Part shown: piece by piece, positions 318-7,661 of the stretch
How positions within the stretch are numbered: the stretch's first letter is position 1
Layout: the number at the start of each line of letters is the position of its first letter
Virus record (IMG/VR): IMGVR_UViG_3300026224_000022
DNA length: 8,120 nt
Reading direction: 5' to 3' (one strand)
DNA from: a virus
Lineage: Duplodnaviria > Heunggongvirae > Uroviricota > Caudoviricetes
The notes under the pieces: model-generated
What the model was told of the DNA's origin: nothing
The model's input: only the letters and a program-made list of their open reading frames with translations
The model's database searches: none
Made by a program: the position numbers and the translations under genes

Positions 318-656
318 CTATTTCCCTGAATTTACGATGAAACTGTTCGAGCGGACTGAAGCATTCATGTTCATAGCCTTCACGGAGGTAGATAACCCGT
401 TGTGTTTCCGGCTCCCAACGAATGACTCTGACGGGCACTCCGTAGTGATCTTTGAACCAGCGGTTAACTTGTCGCAAAGGACTGTCTCCTTCTGCCGGTT
501 GAAATCCCCCACAGCCCACTCTGCAAAGCTGTGGGTTACAATTTCCCTGTCACCTGGTACATTCACTGCATAGCAATACTCCACCTTCGCTTTTCCACCC
601 GGTACAGGAAGCGCAATCAGTTGCGAGCGACGGTAGTGTGTTGTTAAACTGTTCAT
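318..656 (-). CDS. Hypothetical protein, 112 aa as drawn; the 3' half may be out of frame (see findings)
   Basis: ATG at 656..654 overlaps the TGA of the upstream gene (ATGA overlap), with GGAG about 10 nt upstream. The first ~60 codons use strongly E. coli-like codons (CGT, CGC, CTG, GCG, CCG). The last ~45 codons are Ser/Thr/Asn-rich with mixed rare codons, while the overlapping minus frame 265..519 looks more protein-like there. Confidence 0.45.
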
Positions 657-1294
657 GCGTTAGTTTCTCCACAACCAGAAGCAATCGACGCCACGACGCC
701 CGGAGCTGCACACTCGCGGGCGTTACTCTTTTCCGGCGCACAAAAAACACGAAATAACAGTGTTAAATGCTCCTGCCACTTCGCCATTACTTGGTAGCTG
801 TTCTCTTCGATTTGCTCACGCTCAGCTTGGTCAATAACTCCATCAGCAGTTGCCTTGCGTAAGTACTGGGAATGCTTGCCAATCCATTCTATTGACTCCA
901 TCAGCCGCTGATTAATGTCACCATTGTCAATGTCATCAATGACCACCAGCGGCACAAACACCCCATTACTACGACGGGCTATTGCATCCGTTACATGCCT
1001 GGTACCACTGGCATCCTGTAAAACCATGGCCCACTCAAGTGGAAAAATTTGATCCCCACCGCTACGCAGTCTGTTATGCAATTGATCTTTTGCTGGGGTG
1101 ATATCATCAGATTTATACAAACCAAGAATTTCTGCTGCTTCCTCATAGCCATGAGGTAAATCAGCAATCGTTCTTCGTATTGCTGCCACCAGCCATGCTG
1201 GTTGCTTATCAACTTTCCATTCAGGTTCTTTACCCACGTTTAAGCCCTCATATCTGTGGTTTCTGTAAATCGATTTATCCATTAGATTTTTCAT
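653..1294 (-). CDS. CII-position regulatory protein, 213 aa (possible phage CII/YdaT-type regulator)
   Basis: Long ORF immediately downstream of the cro-like gene on the same strand. I place the start at ATG 1294..1292 ([12 protein letters not shown]...), overlapping the cro 3' end; an alternative ATG is at 1282. The track start at 1351 lies inside cro and is unlikely. Functional call rests on position plus a weak by-eye resemblance to phage 186-type CII proteins; not verified. Confidence 0.7.
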
Positions 1295-1475
1295 AAAGCT
1301 CAGGTTTAAATGGCAACCGTCCGCAAGTTCTATATGCAGCCTCTGCTGCACGTCCTTTTGGAATTAACTGGCCAGGACGGTTTCGCCACTGATAAACGGC
1401 TTCAGTTGTTATGCCGAAAAAAGCAGCAACTTTCTCAATGCTGCCGAAGTAGCTTTCGATATCGTCAGTCGTCAT
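1275..1475 (-). CDS. Cro-like HTH transcriptional regulator, 66 aa (YdaS/Cro family)
   Basis: ATG at 1475..1473 preceded by GGAGG about 4 nt upstream on the minus strand. Translation MTTDDIESYFGSIEKVAAFFGITTEAVYQWRNRPGQLIPKGRAAEAAY... shows an HTH followed by the QW-x-n-IP motif typical of YdaS-like Cro proteins. Divergent from the repressor gene across a 97-bp AT-rich operator region. Confidence 0.8.
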   Translation of the reverse strand: MTTDDIESYFGSIEKVAAFFGITTEAVYQWRNRPGQLIPKGRAAEAAYRTCGRLPFKPELYEKSNG

Positions 1476-1572: not shown

Positions 1573-2199
1573 ATGGAAACGGTTGGTCAGCGTATAAAAG
1601 CTCTGAGAAGAGTTACCAGAACGTCCCAGAAAGAATTGGGTAAATTTTGTGGAGTAAGTGACGTTGCTGTGGGGTACTGGGAGAAAGACATCAATGTCCC
1701 TGGTGGAGAAGCACTTTCAAAATTAGCGAAGTTCTTCAATACGTCAATAGATTACATTCTTTATGGTGCGGAGTTTGAAGGCAAACTCGTCACAAACATG
1801 CGCAGAGTTCCTGTAATCTCGTGGGTTCAGGCTGGGCAGTTTACTGAGTGCAGGACAGCAGAAGTGTTTAGTGAAGTAGACAAGTGGGTAGATACATCAT
1901 TAAAGATTGGTGATAACTCATTTGCATTGGAGGTTAAAGGCGACTCCATGACTAACCCTAACGGCCTCCCAACAATACCAGAAGGCGCAACAGTGATTGT
2001 AGATCCTGATGCAGAACCCCGGCATGGAAAAATAGTCATCGCTAGACTTGATGGAACAAACGAAGCCACAGTAAAAAAATTAGTTATCGATGGCCCTCAA
2101 AAGTTTTTAGTGCCATTAAATCCCCGGTACCCCAACATCCCGATCAATGGTAATTGCCTCATCATTGGTGTAGTCAAAGGAGTTCAATACGAACTCTAG
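1573..2199 (+). CDS. CI-type phage repressor, 208 aa (N-terminal XRE-family HTH plus C-terminal S24 LexA-like autopeptidase)
   Basis: N-terminus METVGQRIKALRRVTRTSQKELGKFCGVSDVAVGYWEKD is a canonical XRE HTH. Ala87-Gly88 in VQAGQF (nt 1831..1836) is a candidate RecA-stimulated cleavage site. Ser125 in GDSM (nt 1945..1947) and Lys168/169 in VKKL form the catalytic dyad, spaced as in LexA and lambda CI. Divergent from a cro-like gene. Confidence 0.9.
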   Translation: METVGQRIKALRRVTRTSQKELGKFCGVSDVAVGYWEKDINVPGGEALSKLAKFFNTSIDYILYGAEFEGKLVTNMRRVPVISWVQAGQFTECRTAEVFSEVDKWVDTSLKIGDNSFALEVKGDSMTNPNGLPTIPEGATVIVDPDAEPRHGKIVIARLDGTNEATVKKLVIDGPQKFLVPLNPRYPNIPINGNCLIIGVVKGVQYEL

Positions 2200-2249: not shown

Positions 2250-2279
2250 CTCTTGCCATCAAAACTAAGTTAAGTTAGA
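2228..2279. promoter_or_regulatory. OL-like operator repeats downstream of the repressor gene
   Basis: AACTAAG heptamer at 2227..2233 and 2263..2269. Candidate 16-bp sites ACTAAGAAAAGTTTGG (2228..2243) and ACTAAGTTAAGTTAGA (2264..2279) share the left half-site with the OR-side sites. They lie upstream of the first plus-strand gene after the repressor. Confidence 0.45.
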
Positions 2280-2383
2280 TTTTATATCAAAGATAACGAA
2301 CAGGCAGGACGCCCACGAAGTAGCCGCCGGTGGCGTATGAATGACCGGATGATTCGTTAAATACTATGTGTAAGAGAGCGCAA

Positions 2384-2587
2384 ATGAACCGTTATTTCAC
2401 ATGCTCGTTTTGTGGCGCAAACGAGCTGCAGGCAAAAAAAATCATCGCCAAAGGCGGAAAAGATGAAGTTGCTATCTGCTCTGAGTGCGTAGTCTTGTGT
2501 GTCGGGGCATTAATCAATATCAGCACAACTATTCAGTTCACACCAAATGAGAATGCGCCTTTAGATGCGCGGAAATCTGGAGGTTAA
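2384..2587 (+). CDS. Small protein (67 aa) resembling the ClpX N-terminal C4 zinc-binding domain
   Basis: ATG at 2384 with AGAGAG 5 nt upstream (track start 2366 has no SD). MNRYFTCSFCGANELQAKKIIAKGGKDEVAICSECVVLCVGAL matches the ClpX ZBD pattern as I recall it (CSFCG ... K/R-x-I-A ... IC-x-EC-V-x-LC), with all four Cys present. No AAA+ module follows. Confidence 0.75.
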   Translation: MNRYFTCSFCGANELQAKKIIAKGGKDEVAICSECVVLCVGALINISTTIQFTPNENAPLDARKSGG

Positions 2588-2595
2588 AGAACAAA

Positions 2596-2871
2596 ATGAA
2601 AGTCCAGATTTTAAACAATAGTGGTGAAGTCGTTTGGTCATACGACATAGCCGCTCATGTAGATCAGAGCGGCGATAGCTGGACCAATGGGAAACATCAG
2701 ATTATGGCTGGAGTTGTGTTCTCTTTACGCCGTGCTTTAGAACAGGCTGAAGTCTTTCCATTAGACCCTGAATGGAAATGGCCTTTTTCTATTTGTCCAA
2801 ATTCGGAGAGTACATTTCAGAAAATTGGTCAGAAAGTCGCACTCGAAGAGCATCAGCCAACTGTTTCCTGA
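2596..2871 (+). CDS. Hypothetical protein, 91 aa
   Basis: ATG at 2596, 8 nt after the stop of the upstream gene; GGAGG at 2579..2583 gives a rather long spacing of about 12 nt. Protein-like composition. The 3' 83 nt overlap the convergent minus-strand ORF 2789..3034, so one of the two may be shorter or spurious. Confidence 0.45.
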   Translation: MKVQILNNSGEVVWSYDIAAHVDQSGDSWTNGKHQIMAGVVFSLRRALEQAEVFPLDPEWKWPFSICPNSESTFQKIGQKVALEEHQPTVS

Positions 2872-3034
2872 TTTTTTCAGGTAACTCGTCGGCATCGCAG
2901 AAACAACAACGCTCGATCATGTTGAAAGCCGATTCGTAGAACTGTTTCTGCTGAGTGTCGCTGAGACAGGAAAAGAGCGACGTTACGATGATTTTATTAA
3001 TTGCATTATCAAGTTCTTTTTCATCAAAAGTCAT
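2789..3034 (-). CDS. Hypothetical protein, 80 aa, opposite orientation within the plus-strand operon (moron-like)
   Basis: ATG at 3034..3032 with AAGGAA about 7 nt upstream on the minus strand; stop TAG at 2791..2789. Translation MTFDEKELDNAINKIIVTSLF...CCFCDADELPEKIRKQLADALRVRL... is protein-like. No homolog recognised. Confidence 0.55.
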   Translation of the reverse strand: MTFDEKELDNAINKIIVTSLFSCLSDTQQKQFYESAFNMIERCCFCDADELPEKIRKQLADALRVRLSDQFSEMYSPNLDK

Positions 3035-3129
3035 TTGATTTTCCTTTTATGTATACGGACTTAAAAGGATACCACCGAGCCTGAAGTGGTGAAAAGACAG
3101 GCACATAACAGCTAAGTATTTTCAACCAG

Positions 3130-3450
3130 AGAGAATCCTTAGCGTTGTGGTGAATGCGGCTCAGCGCACGCGGGTTAAGGTTGAGGCTGACAGTCGACCT
3201 TCTGTGGATACCCACCCGCCTGGTGTGCAACCTTCGCCAGGCACCGGGAGGCACCCGGCACCACAACTTTATGCTGTGTGTAGTCCTGGCGGTACCAGCT
3301 TGTACCATTGCTTCCGGCTGGTACCGTCCTTTTTACAAAACAGAGAAGAGCATCACCGGACGACGGGCTCATAACCCAATCCATCCGGGCGGCAGCCACC
3401 GCAGGTGTTCTTCTCTGTTTTGTGGAGAAACCAACCGACCTTGCAGGGTC
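3130..3450 (+). other. GC-rich, hairpin-dense non-coding region (candidate structured RNA or regulatory/terminator cluster)
   Basis: Local GC is much higher than the flanks. ORFs here are Arg/Pro-rich, overlap in all frames and lack SD. Stems: 3218..3225 with 3235..3242 (8 bp); CCGGG/CCCGG 3244..3258; 12-bp stem 3288..3299 with 3317..3328 followed by T5; 13-bp perfect inverted repeat 3337..3349 with 3409..3421. Confidence 0.4.
3288..3334 (+). terminator. Intrinsic-terminator-like hairpin with T-tract
   Basis: GGCGGTACCAGC (3288..3299) pairs with GCTGGTACCGTC (3317..3328), 12 bp with one G-U, 17-nt loop, then C plus TTTTT (3330..3334). Could be a terminator inside the early operon, or the 3' end of a small RNA. 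Confidence 0.5.
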
Positions 3451-3471
3451 GATATGATGAGGAGCAGCAAA

Positions 3472-3834
3472 ATGGCTAGCGAACGCAGTACTGATGTGCA
3501 GGCATTTATCGGGGAGCTGGACGGCGGCGTATTTGAAACCAAAATCGGCGCAGTTCTCAGTGAAGTCGCTTCCGGTGTGATGAACACGAAAACCAAAGGG
3601 AAGGTCTCACTCAACCTGGAAATCGAACCATTTGATGAGAACCGTGTGAAAATCAAACACAAACTCTCATATGTTCGCCCGACTAACCGCGGGAAAATTT
3701 CCGAAGAAGACACCACCGAAACGCCGATGTATGTCAATCGCGGTGGTCGCCTGACTATTCTGCAGGAAGACCAGGGACAATTACTGACTCTTGCCGGTGA
3801 ACCTGACGGAAAACTCCGCGCAGCAGGTCATTAA
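3472..3834 (+). CDS. yfdP: YfdP-like prophage protein, 120 aa
   Basis: ATG at 3472 with GAGGAG (3458..3463) about 8 nt upstream. The track ORF starts at 3154 but its upstream 106 codons run through the GC-rich region and are Arg-rich. The size matches the 120-aa YfdP I recall from K-12 CPS-53, and it sits immediately upstream of a YfdQ-like gene. Confidence 0.75.
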   Translation: MASERSTDVQAFIGELDGGVFETKIGAVLSEVASGVMNTKTKGKVSLNLEIEPFDENRVKIKHKLSYVRPTNRGKISEEDTTETPMYVNRGGRLTILQEDQGQLLTLAGEPDGKLRAAGH

Positions 3835-3899: not shown

Positions 3900-4724
3900 A
3901 TGTCTCAGTACTTAGACGCAACCGCAATTAATCAAATCCAATCCCTTATTTCTGCTCAGGGTGTTAATGAAATTATCAGTAAGATTGGTGCCGATGCTGT
4001 GGCATTGCCTGAGAATTTCCGCATTCATGATCTGGAAAAATTTAATTTAAATCGTTTCCGTTTCCGTGGTTCACTTTCCACTGCCAGCATCGATGACTTT
4101 ACCCGTTATTCTAAAGATCTTGCAGATGAAGGCACCCGCTGCTTTATCGATGCCGATAATATGCGAGCCGTCAGTGTGCTTAACCTGGGTACTATTGATG
4201 AACCAGGTCACGCAGATAACACCGCCACTCTCAAACTGAAAAAGACAGCACCGTTCTCTGCTCTGTTGTCTGTTAATGGCGAGCGTAACTCCCAGAAGTC
4301 ACTGGCAGAATGGATTGAAGACTGGGCCGACTACCTTGTGGGCTTTGATGCTAATGGTGACGCCATTCAGGCAACCAAAGCGGCTGCGGCGATCCGTAAA
4401 ATCACAATTGAAGCGAACCAGACCGCTGATTTTGAAGACAATGACTTCAGCGGCAAACGCTCCCTGATGGAGTCTGTCGAAGCGAAGACCAAAGACATTA
4501 TGCCAGTGGCATTTGAATTTAAATGCGTTCCGTTTGAAGGTCTGAAAGAACGTCCGTTTAAATTACGCCTCAGCATTATCACTGGCGATCGTCCTGTACT
4601 GGTTCTGCGCATTATTCAGCTGGAAGCGGTGCAGGAAGAAATGGCTAACGAATTTCGTGATCTGCTTGTTGAGAAATTCAAAGACAGCAAAGTAGAAACC
4701 TTTATTGGTACTTTCACCGCCTGA
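3900..4724 (+). CDS. yfdQ: YfdQ-like protein, 274 aa (DUF-type prophage protein of unknown function)
   Basis: ATG at 3900 with TGAGGA about 7 nt upstream. Long ORF with good codon usage. Size and position match YfdQ of CPS-53 (recalled, not searched). Confidence 0.85.
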
Positions 4725-4736
4725 TTTCATTACTGC

Positions 4737-4758
4737 AAATGCCCCTGCGGGGGCATTT
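4737..4758 (+). terminator. Hairpin after the yfdQ-like gene (terminator/attenuator candidate)
   Basis: AAATGCCCC (4737..4745) pairs with GGGGCATTT (4750..4758) across a 4-nt loop, 13 nt after the stop codon. The T-run lies within the stem, so this is a weak or bidirectional terminator. Confidence 0.4.
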
Positions 4759-4851
4759 ATGGAAACGTAATTAACTCAATAATCACCGGATGGTGAGGGA
4801 TTCTTTTTAGCAGAATTCAGCGCGGTGCAGCGCATATACGTGGAGAACAAA

Positions 4852-5388
4852 ATGTCATTTATTAAAACTTTTTCCGGGAAGCATTTTTATTATGACAGGA
4901 TAAATAAAGACGACATCGATATTAACGATATCGCGGTTTCCCTTTCAAATATCTGTCGCTTTGCCGGTCATCTTTCGCACTTCTACAGCGTCGCCCAACA
5001 TGCGGTTCTTTGCAGCCAGCTGGTGCCGCAGGAATTTGCTTTTGAAGCGTTAATGCATGATGCAACAGAAGCGTATTGCCAGGACATTCCCGCACCACTG
5101 AAACGCCTTCTTCCTGACTATAAACGGATGGAAGAAAAAATAGACGCCGTAATCCGTGAGAAATACGGGTTACCACCGGTTATGAGTACGCCCGTGAAAT
5201 ATGCCGATCTCATCATGCTGGCAACCGAACGCCGCGATCTCGGGCTTGATGATGGCTCTTTCTGGCCTGTACTGGAAGGTATCCCGGCAACAGAGATGTT
5301 CAACGTGATTCCACTGGCTCCAGGCCATGCCTACGGGATGTTTATGGAACGCTTTAACGAATTATCGGAGTTACGCAAATGCGCATGA
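4852..5388 (+). CDS. yfdR: HD-domain phosphohydrolase, YfdR-like 5'-deoxynucleotidase, 178 aa
   Basis: ATG at 4852 with GGAG (4842..4845) 6 nt upstream; the track start at 4825 is GTG without SD. H...HD signature visible (SVAQHAVL ... ALMHDATEAY). Length 178 aa matches K-12 YfdR, which I recall as a characterised HD-domain 5'-deoxynucleotidase. Confidence 0.85.
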   Translation: MSFIKTFSGKHFYYDRINKDDIDINDIAVSLSNICRFAGHLSHFYSVAQHAVLCSQLVPQEFAFEALMHDATEAYCQDIPAPLKRLLPDYKRMEEKIDAVIREKYGLPPVMSTPVKYADLIMLATERRDLGLDDGSFWPVLEGIPATEMFNVIPLAPGHAYGMFMERFNELSELRKCA

Positions 5389-5741: not shown

Positions 5742-6550
5742 TGACCACATTTACCGATAAAGAACTGATTAAAGAAATCAAAGAACGAATCAGCAGCATG
5801 GACGTGCGAGACAATGTTGAGCGCCGTGCTTATGAAATTGCTCTGGCATCGCTGGAAGAGGATCCGGTGGCATGGCTGCATTCAGACAATGGCTTAGGTA
5901 TTCCGGCAATAACCAGGAGTAAAAACATTGCTGACAGTTGGTTATCAAAGGGCTGGTATGTTCAGCCGCTATATATAGCCAAGCCAGTGCCGGTGGTGCC
6001 AGATGCTCGTCCGTCTTTAAATAATGGCATAGTCGGTTTTGATGAAGGCTGGAACGCCTGCCGCGCTGCCATGCTCTATGGTGCCGTACCTGCAAGCCAG
6101 GCTTACAAGTTGCCACAAACGCAGTTTAAACAGGTTGCTGACCTCTACGAAATGCAATTTGATGACGGTCGCACTTGTGCCTTTCACACTGATGCGCAAA
6201 AGGCTGTGCAATGGCTTCAGGCGTGCGACGGAAACAGGGTTCAGGAATACGTTAAGCTGGAACGATTGCAGAACGCACTGTCTGGCAACTCTCCGGTAAC
6301 TCCGGATGGTTGGGTTATGGTGCCGAAGAGACTAACAGCCGAGAACGGCGCTAAGGGGGCGCTATCCGGTGAATTTTCAGAAACTACGTTTATAAGCTGC
6401 CTGGAATGCTTTGGCGATGATGATTGCGATACCTGTGACGGGAGCGGACGTATTGAAATTAAAGTGCCAGTCACGTGGTCGACCATAAAATCTATCTGGG
6501 ATAAAGGTATCGAGTATTTTGCAGCAAAACCATCACAAGAGGTGAAGTGA
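5741..6550 (+). CDS. Hypothetical protein, 269 aa, with C-terminal CxxC...CxxCxGxG zinc-knuckle motif (full-length counterpart of the YfdT position)
   Basis: ATG at 5741 overlaps the upstream stop (TAATG), with GGAG 4 nt upstream. C-terminal CLECFGDDDCDTCDGSG (nt 6398..6448) is a DnaJ-type CxxCxGxG-like motif with four Cys. The K-12 gene at this position is only 101 aa, so this copy appears intact. Confidence 0.85.
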   Translation: MTTFTDKELIKEIKERISSMDVRDNVERRAYEIALASLEEDPVAWLHSDNGLGIPAITRSKNIADSWLSKGWYVQPLYIAKPVPVVPDARPSLNNGIVGFDEGWNACRAAMLYGAVPASQAYKLPQTQFKQVADLYEMQFDDGRTCAFHTDAQKAVQWLQACDGNRVQEYVKLERLQNALSGNSPVTPDGWVMVPKRLTAENGAKGALSGEFSETTFISCLECFGDDDCDTCDGSGRIEIKVPVTWSTIKSIWDKGIEYFAAKPSQEVK

Positions 6551-7122: not shown

Positions 7123-7158
7123 TTTTCCCGGGTGCAGCCGGTTTTGATGGAGAAAATT

Positions 7159-7440
7159 ATGAACACCTTGTTTTTACTGATGGCTGAATTCAATACCCCT
7201 AACATTGAACTCTCAGCAGTTAGCCAAAAGTACTTTGGCATGAGTCCAGCCACGGCAGAAGCAAAAGCAAACGCTTGTAAGTTGCCCGTTCCAACATATC
7301 GCATCGGCACATCACAAAAAGCAAAACGTTGCATCAATATTCAGGATCTTGCGGAATACATAGACAAAAGACGAGAAGAAGGACGTATCGAGTGGGAACA
7401 GGTCAGAACAAGCAAACAGAAGGGCAAAGAACATCACTAA
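7159..7440 (+). CDS. PrtN-family / excisionase-like small DNA-binding protein, 93 aa
   Basis: ATG at 7159 with GGAG (7149..7152) 6 nt upstream; the track start at 7132 is GTG. N-terminus MNTLFLLMAEF... and a basic C-terminal half resemble PrtN-type pyocin activator/excisionase-like proteins (by-eye, from memory). It is the last gene of the plus operon, in the same terminal position torI occupies in KplE1. Confidence 0.7.
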   Translation: MNTLFLLMAEFNTPNIELSAVSQKYFGMSPATAEAKANACKLPVPTYRIGTSQKAKRCINIQDLAEYIDKRREEGRIEWEQVRTSKQKGKEHH

Positions 7441-7446
7441 ATAAAA

Positions 7447-7468
7447 AACCCGCCTAAAGGCGGGTTTT
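7447..7468. terminator. Bidirectional rho-independent terminator
   Basis: AAAAAACCCGCC-TAAA-GGCGGGTTTT: 6-bp GC stem CCCGCC/GGCGGG (7449..7454 with 7459..7464) flanked by an A-run and a T-run. Lies between the convergent stops at 7440 (plus) and 7488 (minus). Confidence 0.75.
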
Positions 7469-7487
7469 CAAAAAGCACCAGCTATGA

Positions 7488-7661
7488 TCATGCTGCTTTG
7501 CGACGACGAAGCTTACCCTGCTGCTCTTTACCAGAGACAGTAGCGTGAGTGAACGCATTAGGAGCAGCCTTCATCAGAACTTCAACAGCAGCACCCATAC
7601 CTGCGAATGCTTTCATTGTGTCGAACTTAACCTGTGGCTTGGTTGCTTTTTGATCTTCCAT
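7488..7661 (-). CDS. Small protein, 57 aa, Ala/Lys-rich (absent from the ORF track, below its length cutoff)
   Basis: Hand translation of the minus strand: ATG at 7661..7659 with AGGAG 6 nt upstream; MEDQKATKPQVKFDTMKAFAGMGAAVEVLMKAAPNAFTHATVSGKEQQGKLRRRKAA; stop TGA at 7490..7488, followed by the bidirectional terminator. Confidence 0.6.
   Translation of the reverse strand: MEDQKATKPQVKFDTMKAFAGMGAAVEVLMKAAPNAFTHATVSGKEQQGKLRRRKAA

Follow-up and report, generated by a model that had tools for sequence, protein, structure and literature searches.

Sequence evidence for two convergent, overlapping small genes exchanged as one cassette in the early-left operon of SfV-type lambdoid prophages

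Phage morons are autonomous, often counter-oriented transcription units within phage operons, and they were defined for lambdoid phages of the HK97 and HK022 types. Facing transcription units are also found in convergent-promoter switches of temperate phages and in 3'-overlapping sense/antisense pairs such as prophage type I toxin-antitoxin loci, with the face-to-face promoters of coliphage 186 and the bsrG/SR4 pair of SPbeta as examples. Interference or RNA pairing has been demonstrated in systems of these types, which have either a non-coding RNA or a regulator gene as the antisense partner. For overlapping open reading frames (ORFs) on opposite strands, a survey found the second frame to be free of selection in most long antiparallel cases (bioRxiv 10.1101/724807). 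In this study, a pair of small convergent ORFs, named A and B, was analyzed in an 8,120-nucleotide (nt) stretch of Caudoviricetes DNA (IMG/VR record IMGVR_UViG_3300026224_000022, the whole of which is called the window below), which comes from an SfV/CPS-53-like lambdoid prophage of Escherichia coli and covers its immunity and early region. Comparison with relatives points to A and B being two genuine genes that move together, with a short part of their overlap probably constrained in both frames.

The two ORFs, their overlap and their ribosome-binding sites (RBSs) are located as follows.

2596-2871, plus strand: ORF A, 91 amino acids (aa), ATG start, PHROG 3195 (ORF list)
2789-3034, minus strand: ORF B, 81 aa, ATG start, PHROG 3311 (ORF list)
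2789-2871: overlap of A and B, 83 bp, convergent (3'-3')
2579-2583, plus strand: RBS of A, GGAGG, 12 nt before the ATG (read from the sequence)
3042-3045 (read 3045->3042), minus strand: RBS of B, AGGA, 7 nt before the ATG
2816-2848: putative dual-constraint core, with F74...V81-A-L-E84 in A and E73...R66, R64 and L63 in B

An earlier note on this DNA had described the 91-aa plus-strand ORF and the 83-bp overlap at the 3' ends, both of which are borne out by the ORF list, while its minus-strand ORF has the right coordinates and a length of 81 aa, not the 80 aa given there. Within the overlap, the first codon positions of the two frames face each other (A1 faces B1), A2 faces B3 and A3 faces B2. 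The length of A or B by itself is within chance expectation for the window, and antisense ORFs of 80-110 aa were also observed over clearly real genes, for example at 4367..4612, 4922..5176 and 6241..6486, all on the minus strand. The pair rises above chance because both frames are conserved open across lineages. The opinion of the earlier note that B has the better RBS is fair in view of the two spacings. The GGAGG of A begins 6 nt 5' of the TAA stop (2585-2587) of the zinc-finger ORF that precedes it, and in the alignment upstream of A the relatives carry GAGGA 7-8 nt before the ATG, with the RBS of B present as AGAAGGAAA in nearly all lineages.

The closest phage records were SfV (97.6%), vB_EcoM-720R4 and SKA5, and at least 80% of the interval 2560-3140 was present in 404 of 5426 complete E. 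coli genomes. Protein searches recovered A homologues with 57-68% identity from Salmonella and metagenome assemblies, with more distant ones reaching down to 43% identity, and a profile search recovered B homologues from Salmonella, Klebsiella and Yersinia; searches of genome contigs with the A and B profiles, and of viral contigs with the proteins of loci L015 and L008 (relatives are numbered with the prefix L), gave no match. Each ORF taken separately, as the earlier note had proposed to check, is thus kept in relatives from these three genera and metagenomes. Both frames were open and convergent in every diverged locus whose DNA was read, and both were open in all of the ~14 independent lineages examined, so that the accumulation of stops in one frame, which the note had named as the sign of a single real gene, was not seen. 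In the window and its relatives, the distance from the A ATG to the B ATG is exactly 439 nt without any indel, at 63-77% DNA identity, and the distant loci L109 (436 nt), L112 (442 nt), L111 and L113, in which A is 43-56% identical, also carry both genes, with overlaps of 116-149 nt. Among the loci examined, no lineage harbored one gene without the other apart from evident decay, which took the form of an IS3 insertion in B, deletion of A, and frameshifted variants. In strain 115, an IS3-family element was found within B (L006 2914-4127), and in strain VTB96933v, a deletion fuses the 5' two-thirds of B to the remnant of a tail-fibre gene (L007 2415-2702). Presence and absence were observed among similar phages: SfV, vB_EcoM-720R4 and SKA5 have A and B together, SfIV, SfII, Kati and others have the flanks in common and lack the pair, and the Sp1 prophage of O157:H7 Sakai is also without it. 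These alignments indicate that A and B are one conserved tail-to-tail cassette, of about 2575-3104, that is exchanged as a unit, and it occupies a variable slot of the early-left operon in lambdoid prophages of the SfV, CPS-53 and Rac types.

Selection on the two frames was measured with Nei-Gojobori statistics over seven lineages, as the ratio of nonsynonymous to synonymous differences (pN/pS). Outside the overlap, the pooled pN/pS was 0.33 for A codons 1-64, 0.30 for B codons 1-23 and 0.23 for B codons 24-54, compared with 1.84 in the control minus frame opposite the A core and 1.46 and 1.97 in control plus frames beyond A. Comparisons of the window with each relative gave omega (dN/dS) of 0.1-0.25 (0.1-0.2 for A codons 1-64) with dS often saturated, and the synonymous sites of B codons 1-54 were saturated as well. 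Site variability follows the same division, as the A-only part is most variable at the third positions of A (A3/B2 0.405, A2/B3 0.150), and the B-only parts show 0.14-0.19 at A3/B2 and 0.46-0.49 at A2/B3. Polymorphism within the E. coli clade is sparse and nearly neutral, with 15 nonsynonymous to 8 synonymous changes in A and 10 to 5 in B.

Because of the purifying selection on each frame outside the overlap, and because both frames are kept in relatives, A and B are, by every comparison made here, two genuine small protein-coding genes. That only one of them is a gene, opposed by a chance open frame, might be suggested by annotation practice, since PGAP annotates A alone (B is called only where A is deleted) and the RAST-type phage records of vB_EcoM-720R4 and SKA5 annotate B and not A, and also by how common antisense ORFs of such length are in the window. 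However, each frame shows a pN/pS of 0.23-0.33 outside the overlap with saturated synonymous sites, true antisense frames reach 1.5-2.0, and A and B keep their own RBSs and belong to separate PHROG families, which makes a single gene with a chance partner hardly credible; the suggestion of the earlier note that one ORF is spurious does not survive these values. As the pipelines annotate only one of the two (orf33 of SfV is A), one real conserved prophage gene is absent from most records.

Inside the overlap, the B frame dominates because the variability of the overlap core is B-like (A3/B2 0.172, A2/B3 0.361), the amino-acid identity of B is flat at 0.65-0.67 over its full length (0.65 in the overlap), and that of A declines from 0.69 at residues 1-64 to 0.51 at residues 71-91, little better than the 0.44 of a non-coding A-frame control. 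The codon pattern switches from A-type to B-type at ~2796-2811, that is, at the B C-terminus, and in the distant pair L109/L112, the A tail is 24% identical and the B C-terminus 45%. The conserved core of A comprises residues 1 to ~66 (through WxWPFSI), residues ~71-85 are encoded opposite the last helix of B, and no conservation was found after residue ~86. The A stop drifts among codons 91, 93, 100, 108, 122 or >146, with the A frame of L108 open through all of B, and a stop at codon 123 arises because B has Leu24 followed by a codon beginning with A ([S/N/T]25). A 122-aa form of A, seen in many lineages, was considered as a real protein and rejected, as codons 92-122 have a pN/pS of 1.46, like the antisense controls. 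Past residue ~86, A thus appears to be a free-running tail that ends where the B sequence creates a stop.

The B-like variability, the drifting stop as a by-product of B, and the weak identity of the A tail are what a passive overlap would leave, in which only B is selected in 2789-2871, the function of A stops at residue ~66 and the rest is run-on. Against it, the synonymous proportion (pS) of B drops from 0.60-0.77 in every 21-codon window of codons 1-54 to 0.37 at codons 55-75, in the overlap only and with B pN unchanged (p = 0.0011 in a permutation test that shuffles codons), and the pS of A is 0.22-0.36 in the overlap compared with 0.46-0.69 outside. Among the third positions of A, no variation was seen at 14 of 21 sites within the overlap, compared with 13 of 63 outside it (p = 2.5e-4). 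Four B residues, L63 (CTT), R64 (CGA), R66 (CGA) and E73 (GAA), use one codon each in eight lineages, with the rare codon CGA at both fixed Arg positions. Invariant four- or six-fold-degenerate B residues with a single codon number three of five in the overlap and none of eight outside (one-sided Fisher test calculated by hand, p = 0.035). The frozen third positions of B are the second positions of the A codons E84, L/F83 and V/I81, and the stretch (V/I)A(L/F)E is retained in A homologues as remote as 43% identity, the changes in it being conservative. We consider a purely passive overlap unlikely.

The additional constraint might instead act on the nucleic acid, through 3'-end formation, RNase III processing or RNA pairing, and not on the A protein; the frozen synonymous sites do cluster in ~30 nt at the 3' ends of both mRNAs, where GCTCTCGAAGAGC can fold a 5-bp hairpin in most lineages. 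This hairpin is, however, broken in the window (GCACTCGAAGAGC) and in Yersinia (GCGTTCGAAGTTC) with no compensating changes, and no terminator-like site was called by the scan in the overlap, so a constraint of this kind is very unlikely. The region of ~2816-2848 is probably constrained in both frames, with A selected to about residue 85. The dN/dS-style check of 2789..2871 that the earlier note had proposed, in order to see which frame is selected, gives a divided answer, the B frame dominating and A probably also constrained over that core. The claim of dual coding is only moderate, because the tests of dual constraint ignore phylogenetic non-independence and the samples are small, and the B3-site test alone, which was marginal (p = 0.08), also tells against it.

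The sequences to the left of the cassette suggest how A may be expressed, and the features there are the following.

653-1351, minus strand: CII-like gene
1275-1475, minus strand: P22-Cro-like gene
1573-2199, plus strand: S24/helix-turn-helix (HTH) repressor gene (cI)
2218-2249: hairpin with A-run and T-run flanks, right after the cI stop (read from the sequence)
2253-2281, plus strand: PL-like promoter, TTGCCA-17-TAGATT (promoter scan), the sole plus-strand promoter-like site after cI
2296-2356, plus strand: structured leader RNA motif, AACAGGCAGGACGCCCAC...CCGGATGATTCG, between the PL-like promoter and the first ORF
2366-2587, plus strand: ORF with a ClpX-type C4 zinc finger, 73 aa

The half-site AAACTAAG in the spacer of the PL-like promoter recurs in the cro/cI intergenic operators, and the promoter shares exact matches of 8-9 nt with 1486-1494 and 1533-1541. 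Homology between prophages with different repressors starts at ~2575-2594, just 5' of the A RBS, so the operators must lie left of A; directly upstream of A, the Yersinia relatives have a TTGACA-18-TACATT promoter between immunity-specific repeats. The placement of the pair inside the early operon by the earlier note is borne out by this promoter with repressor half-sites upstream of the zinc-finger ORF and A, and A would be an early, repressor-controlled gene that is silent in the lysogen. The hairpin at 2218-2249 is likely a bidirectional terminator, missed by the scan because its T-run forms part of the stem, and is a possible end point for B-strand transcripts. The leader motif was observed in 86 fetched loci, always on the A strand, and had no Rfam match; RNAalifold predicted an outer stem together with a hairpin whose two arms covary (CCGGT/ACCGG, CCTGG/CCAGG and CCCGG/CCGGG). 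It holds the position of lambda nutL and HK022 putL and, by analogy, could be a cis-acting antitermination or processing element. In Yersinia, the motif is located downstream of B and not upstream of A.

On the other side of the cassette, the main-branch lineages carry GCCTGTCTTTT(C/A)ACCAC-N10-GTGGTATCCTT upstream of B (window 3104->3060, minus strand), a block of ~45 nt that hardly varies among lineages with saturated synonymous sites, and upstream of which conservation ends abruptly. It is present in 94 of 115 loci, and its elements are these.

3095->3090, minus strand: putative -35 element, TTTTCA, followed by an 18-nt spacer
3074->3066, minus strand: putative extended -10 element, TGGTATCCT, hardly varying at the T, A, final T and TG positions
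3071-3090: inverted repeat ACCAC-N10-GTGGT, within the spacer

With these elements the putative start site of B would be near 3058, giving a leader of ~25 nt that includes the AGGA RBS. In L015, the inverted repeat changes symmetrically to ACCGC/GCGGT, a change compatible with either a hairpin or a binding site for a dimer. Phages that differ in immunity type or repressor carry the same block, and in SfIV a variant of it precedes an unrelated minus-strand gene (144 aa, PHROG 5286) that fills the same slot, in keeping with a promoter that drives whichever counter-oriented gene is placed there. We infer that the block is the B promoter, of the extended -10 type. Three other roles were tried and rejected. 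As a terminator, it has a stem of only 5-6 bp, and neither strand carries a conserved T-run; as an N-terminal extension of B it is not coding, because an in-frame TAA lies five codons before the B ATG; and as a cI operator it would not be the same across repressors, with no better than 4 mismatches in 15 to the OR half-sites. As a separate observation, ~1400 further E. coli genomes, including K-12, retain nothing of 2560-3140 except 3066-3140 (75 nt, with the B block and the start of the STnc100-like match), and this piece behaves like a mosaic junction common to otherwise unrelated prophage segments.

Taken together, the model would run as follows. A would be transcribed from the repressor-controlled PL-like promoter at 2253-2281 and would work with the zinc-finger protein, and B would be transcribed in the opposite direction from its own promoter within 3060-3104, independently of immunity type and possibly under control through the inverted repeat in the spacer. 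Within antisense-A, from 2789 to 2596 on the minus strand, the scan detected nothing resembling a terminator, the nearest candidates lying beyond it at 2316-2300 and 2218-2249, so complementarity of the two transcripts would extend at least across the overlap and probably across both genes. B would be expressed while PL is off. Once the prophage is induced, read-through from PL would suppress B, and the reverse would also hold, through colliding polymerases or the formation of RNA duplexes. Such mutual antisense interference is plausible from the layout of the two units. The model as a whole, with two genuine genes in one cassette, opposed PL-like and B promoters and partial dual constraint, is regarded as probable. 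A stronger version, in which A and B are an obligate bistable module whose overlap and dual coding make induction-phase A (acting with the zinc-finger protein) and lysogen-phase B mutually exclusive, as a lysogeny-coupled switch or a defence/anti-defence pair placed where lambda has N, in prophages with no evident N gene at this locus, is judged unlikely.

Several observations weigh against the model. The consensus promoter scan did not call the block upstream of B, which has 8 of 12 hexamer matches, and the block persists beside STnc100 in genomes without B, such as K-12; it could belong to a neighboring module or be a recombination junction. The own promoter that the earlier note had placed in 3035..3130 has only indirect support, from the conserved, immunity-independent block. 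In the E. coli clade, the changes are mostly nonsynonymous singletons in both genes, B is disrupted in 3 of 44 haplotypes (two by a premature stop and one by an ATG->ATA start change), and A is frameshifted in one cluster seen on 126 contigs. The AlphaFold2 (AF2) models are of low confidence, with three helices and a predicted local distance difference test score (pLDDT) of 62 for B and a poor model with a pLDDT of 46 for A.

The B protein is acidic, with three predicted helices, and carries an RCC(Y/F)C motif in the main branch. Family matches of the two proteins were limited to PHROG 3195 for A and PHROG 3311 for B, neither with an assigned function. Scans of both against Pfam, NCBIfam and PADLOC returned noise only, PDB profile searches returned a designed protein at E = 0.017 and noise, and Foldseek of the B model against PDB returned nothing below E = 5. 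A search of one collection of papers by accession or PHROG id yielded nothing on these proteins, and one on convergent overlapping prophage genes yielded general papers only. The zinc-finger ORF, which ends 8 nt before the A ATG, matches Pfam zf-C4_ClpX (PF06689) at E = 1.4e-10. In the metagenomic locus L113 (101-664), a single 187-aa ORF joins zf-C4_ClpX and an A homologue in frame (30.3 bits, cut-off 27), a Rosetta-stone arrangement that hints at a joint function, and in other relatives the A domain is attached to another N-terminal segment. By these fusions, A seems to be a modular domain that may work with the zinc-finger protein, and a link of the two to ClpXP is a guess.

The strict co-occurrence of A and B in every lineage, their exchange as one cassette, the small and acidic nature of both proteins, and the occurrence of the A domain on different N-terminal modules, as is often the case for effector or adaptor domains, would also suit two antagonists (toxin-antidote or effector-inhibitor) that bind each other as proteins and whose convergent layout serves only for linkage. 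However, no PADLOC, Pfam, NCBIfam or PDB family proved similar to A or B, and either gene is naturally inactivated alone with no obvious loss of the other, so we hold such a pair to be distinctly unlikely and retain the model of two opposed units with possible interference.

Further features were noted around the cassette.

3114-3337, plus strand: STnc100-like RNA match
Downstream of the STnc100-like match: yfdP-like, yfdQ-like (DUF2303) and yfdR-like (HD) genes
L004 1232-2122: BRCT-domain gene, minus strand, hot-spot cargo
L008 1552-2706: HSDR_N restriction-type gene, hot-spot cargo
L115 926-1360: 144-aa PHROG 5286 gene, hot-spot cargo

The stretch 3114-3337, with a G+C content of 0.58, matches Rfam STnc100 end to end with 42.4 bits (E = 1e-6), short of the gathering score, which is 47. 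A connection of STnc100 with the prophage small RNA PasD has been drawn in a 2026 preprint (10.64898/2026.05.13.724894). The long ORFs drawn over this stretch, namely the 5' part of 3154-3834(+), 3024-3308(-) and 3175-3399(-), are probably not genes; PGAP annotates the region as a frameshifted pseudogene in relatives, and the yfdP-like gene most likely starts near 3472. A second STnc100 match at 4716-4895 (+), between the yfdQ- and yfdR-like genes, with 19.4 bits and E = 0.76, is most likely due to chance. At 7436-7508, after the 7132-7440(+) ORF, T-runs border a strong G+C-rich hairpin on either side (AAAACCCGCCTTTAGGCGGGTTTTTT); this is probably a bidirectional terminator, and weak Rfam matches there cover only the terminator-like stem. 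The interval that separates the repressor gene from the early genes is a cargo hot spot whose contents differ among relatives, as the last three entries of the list illustrate.

The cassette occurs in roughly 7% of complete E. coli genomes, and most records omit one of its two genes. The pair is a clean natural antiparallel overlap in which each partner is validated independently, and it can be used to test methods that detect selection in overlaps. If B is indeed tied to lysogeny and A to induction, the locus would provide a compact model of transcriptional interference in a phage early operon.

Among described systems, the closest kinds are the counter-oriented moron-like gene in a phage early operon and the antiparallel overlapping pair. 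As with morons, B is small, opposes the surrounding early operon and has its own putative promoter-like block independent of immunity type, the slot holds other genes in related phages (the minus-strand PHROG 5286 gene in SfIV), and the cassette is present or absent between otherwise similar phages. In contrast to morons, the exchanged unit is A with B and not B alone, the G+C content of 0.43 over 2551-3000 does not differ from the 0.42-0.45 of the left flank, and no own terminator was found directly after B in the minus-strand scan; the term moron-like, used in the earlier note, fits loosely, for presence and absence and not for these three traits. As in antiparallel 3'-3' pairs, two genes on opposite strands share 74-161 nt, and the synonymous rates are depressed in the overlap, the usual signature argued for dual coding, but only ~30-60 nt look doubly constrained and the rest of the overlap is a drifting tail. 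Unlike the antiparallel ORFs surveyed, A and B each have a long non-overlapping part with a pN/pS near 0.3. The ORF upstream of A is a bona fide stand-alone form of the N-terminal zinc-binding domain of ClpX (PF06689), whereas A itself is without detectable similarity to ClpX, its adaptors or solved structures, and many relatives have A without the zinc-finger ORF. As in coliphage 186 and bsrG/SR4, two transcription units face each other, interference would be expected, and a lysogenic arm appears to oppose a lytic arm; here, in contrast, both arms encode conserved proteins, neither of which resembles a repressor or a toxin.

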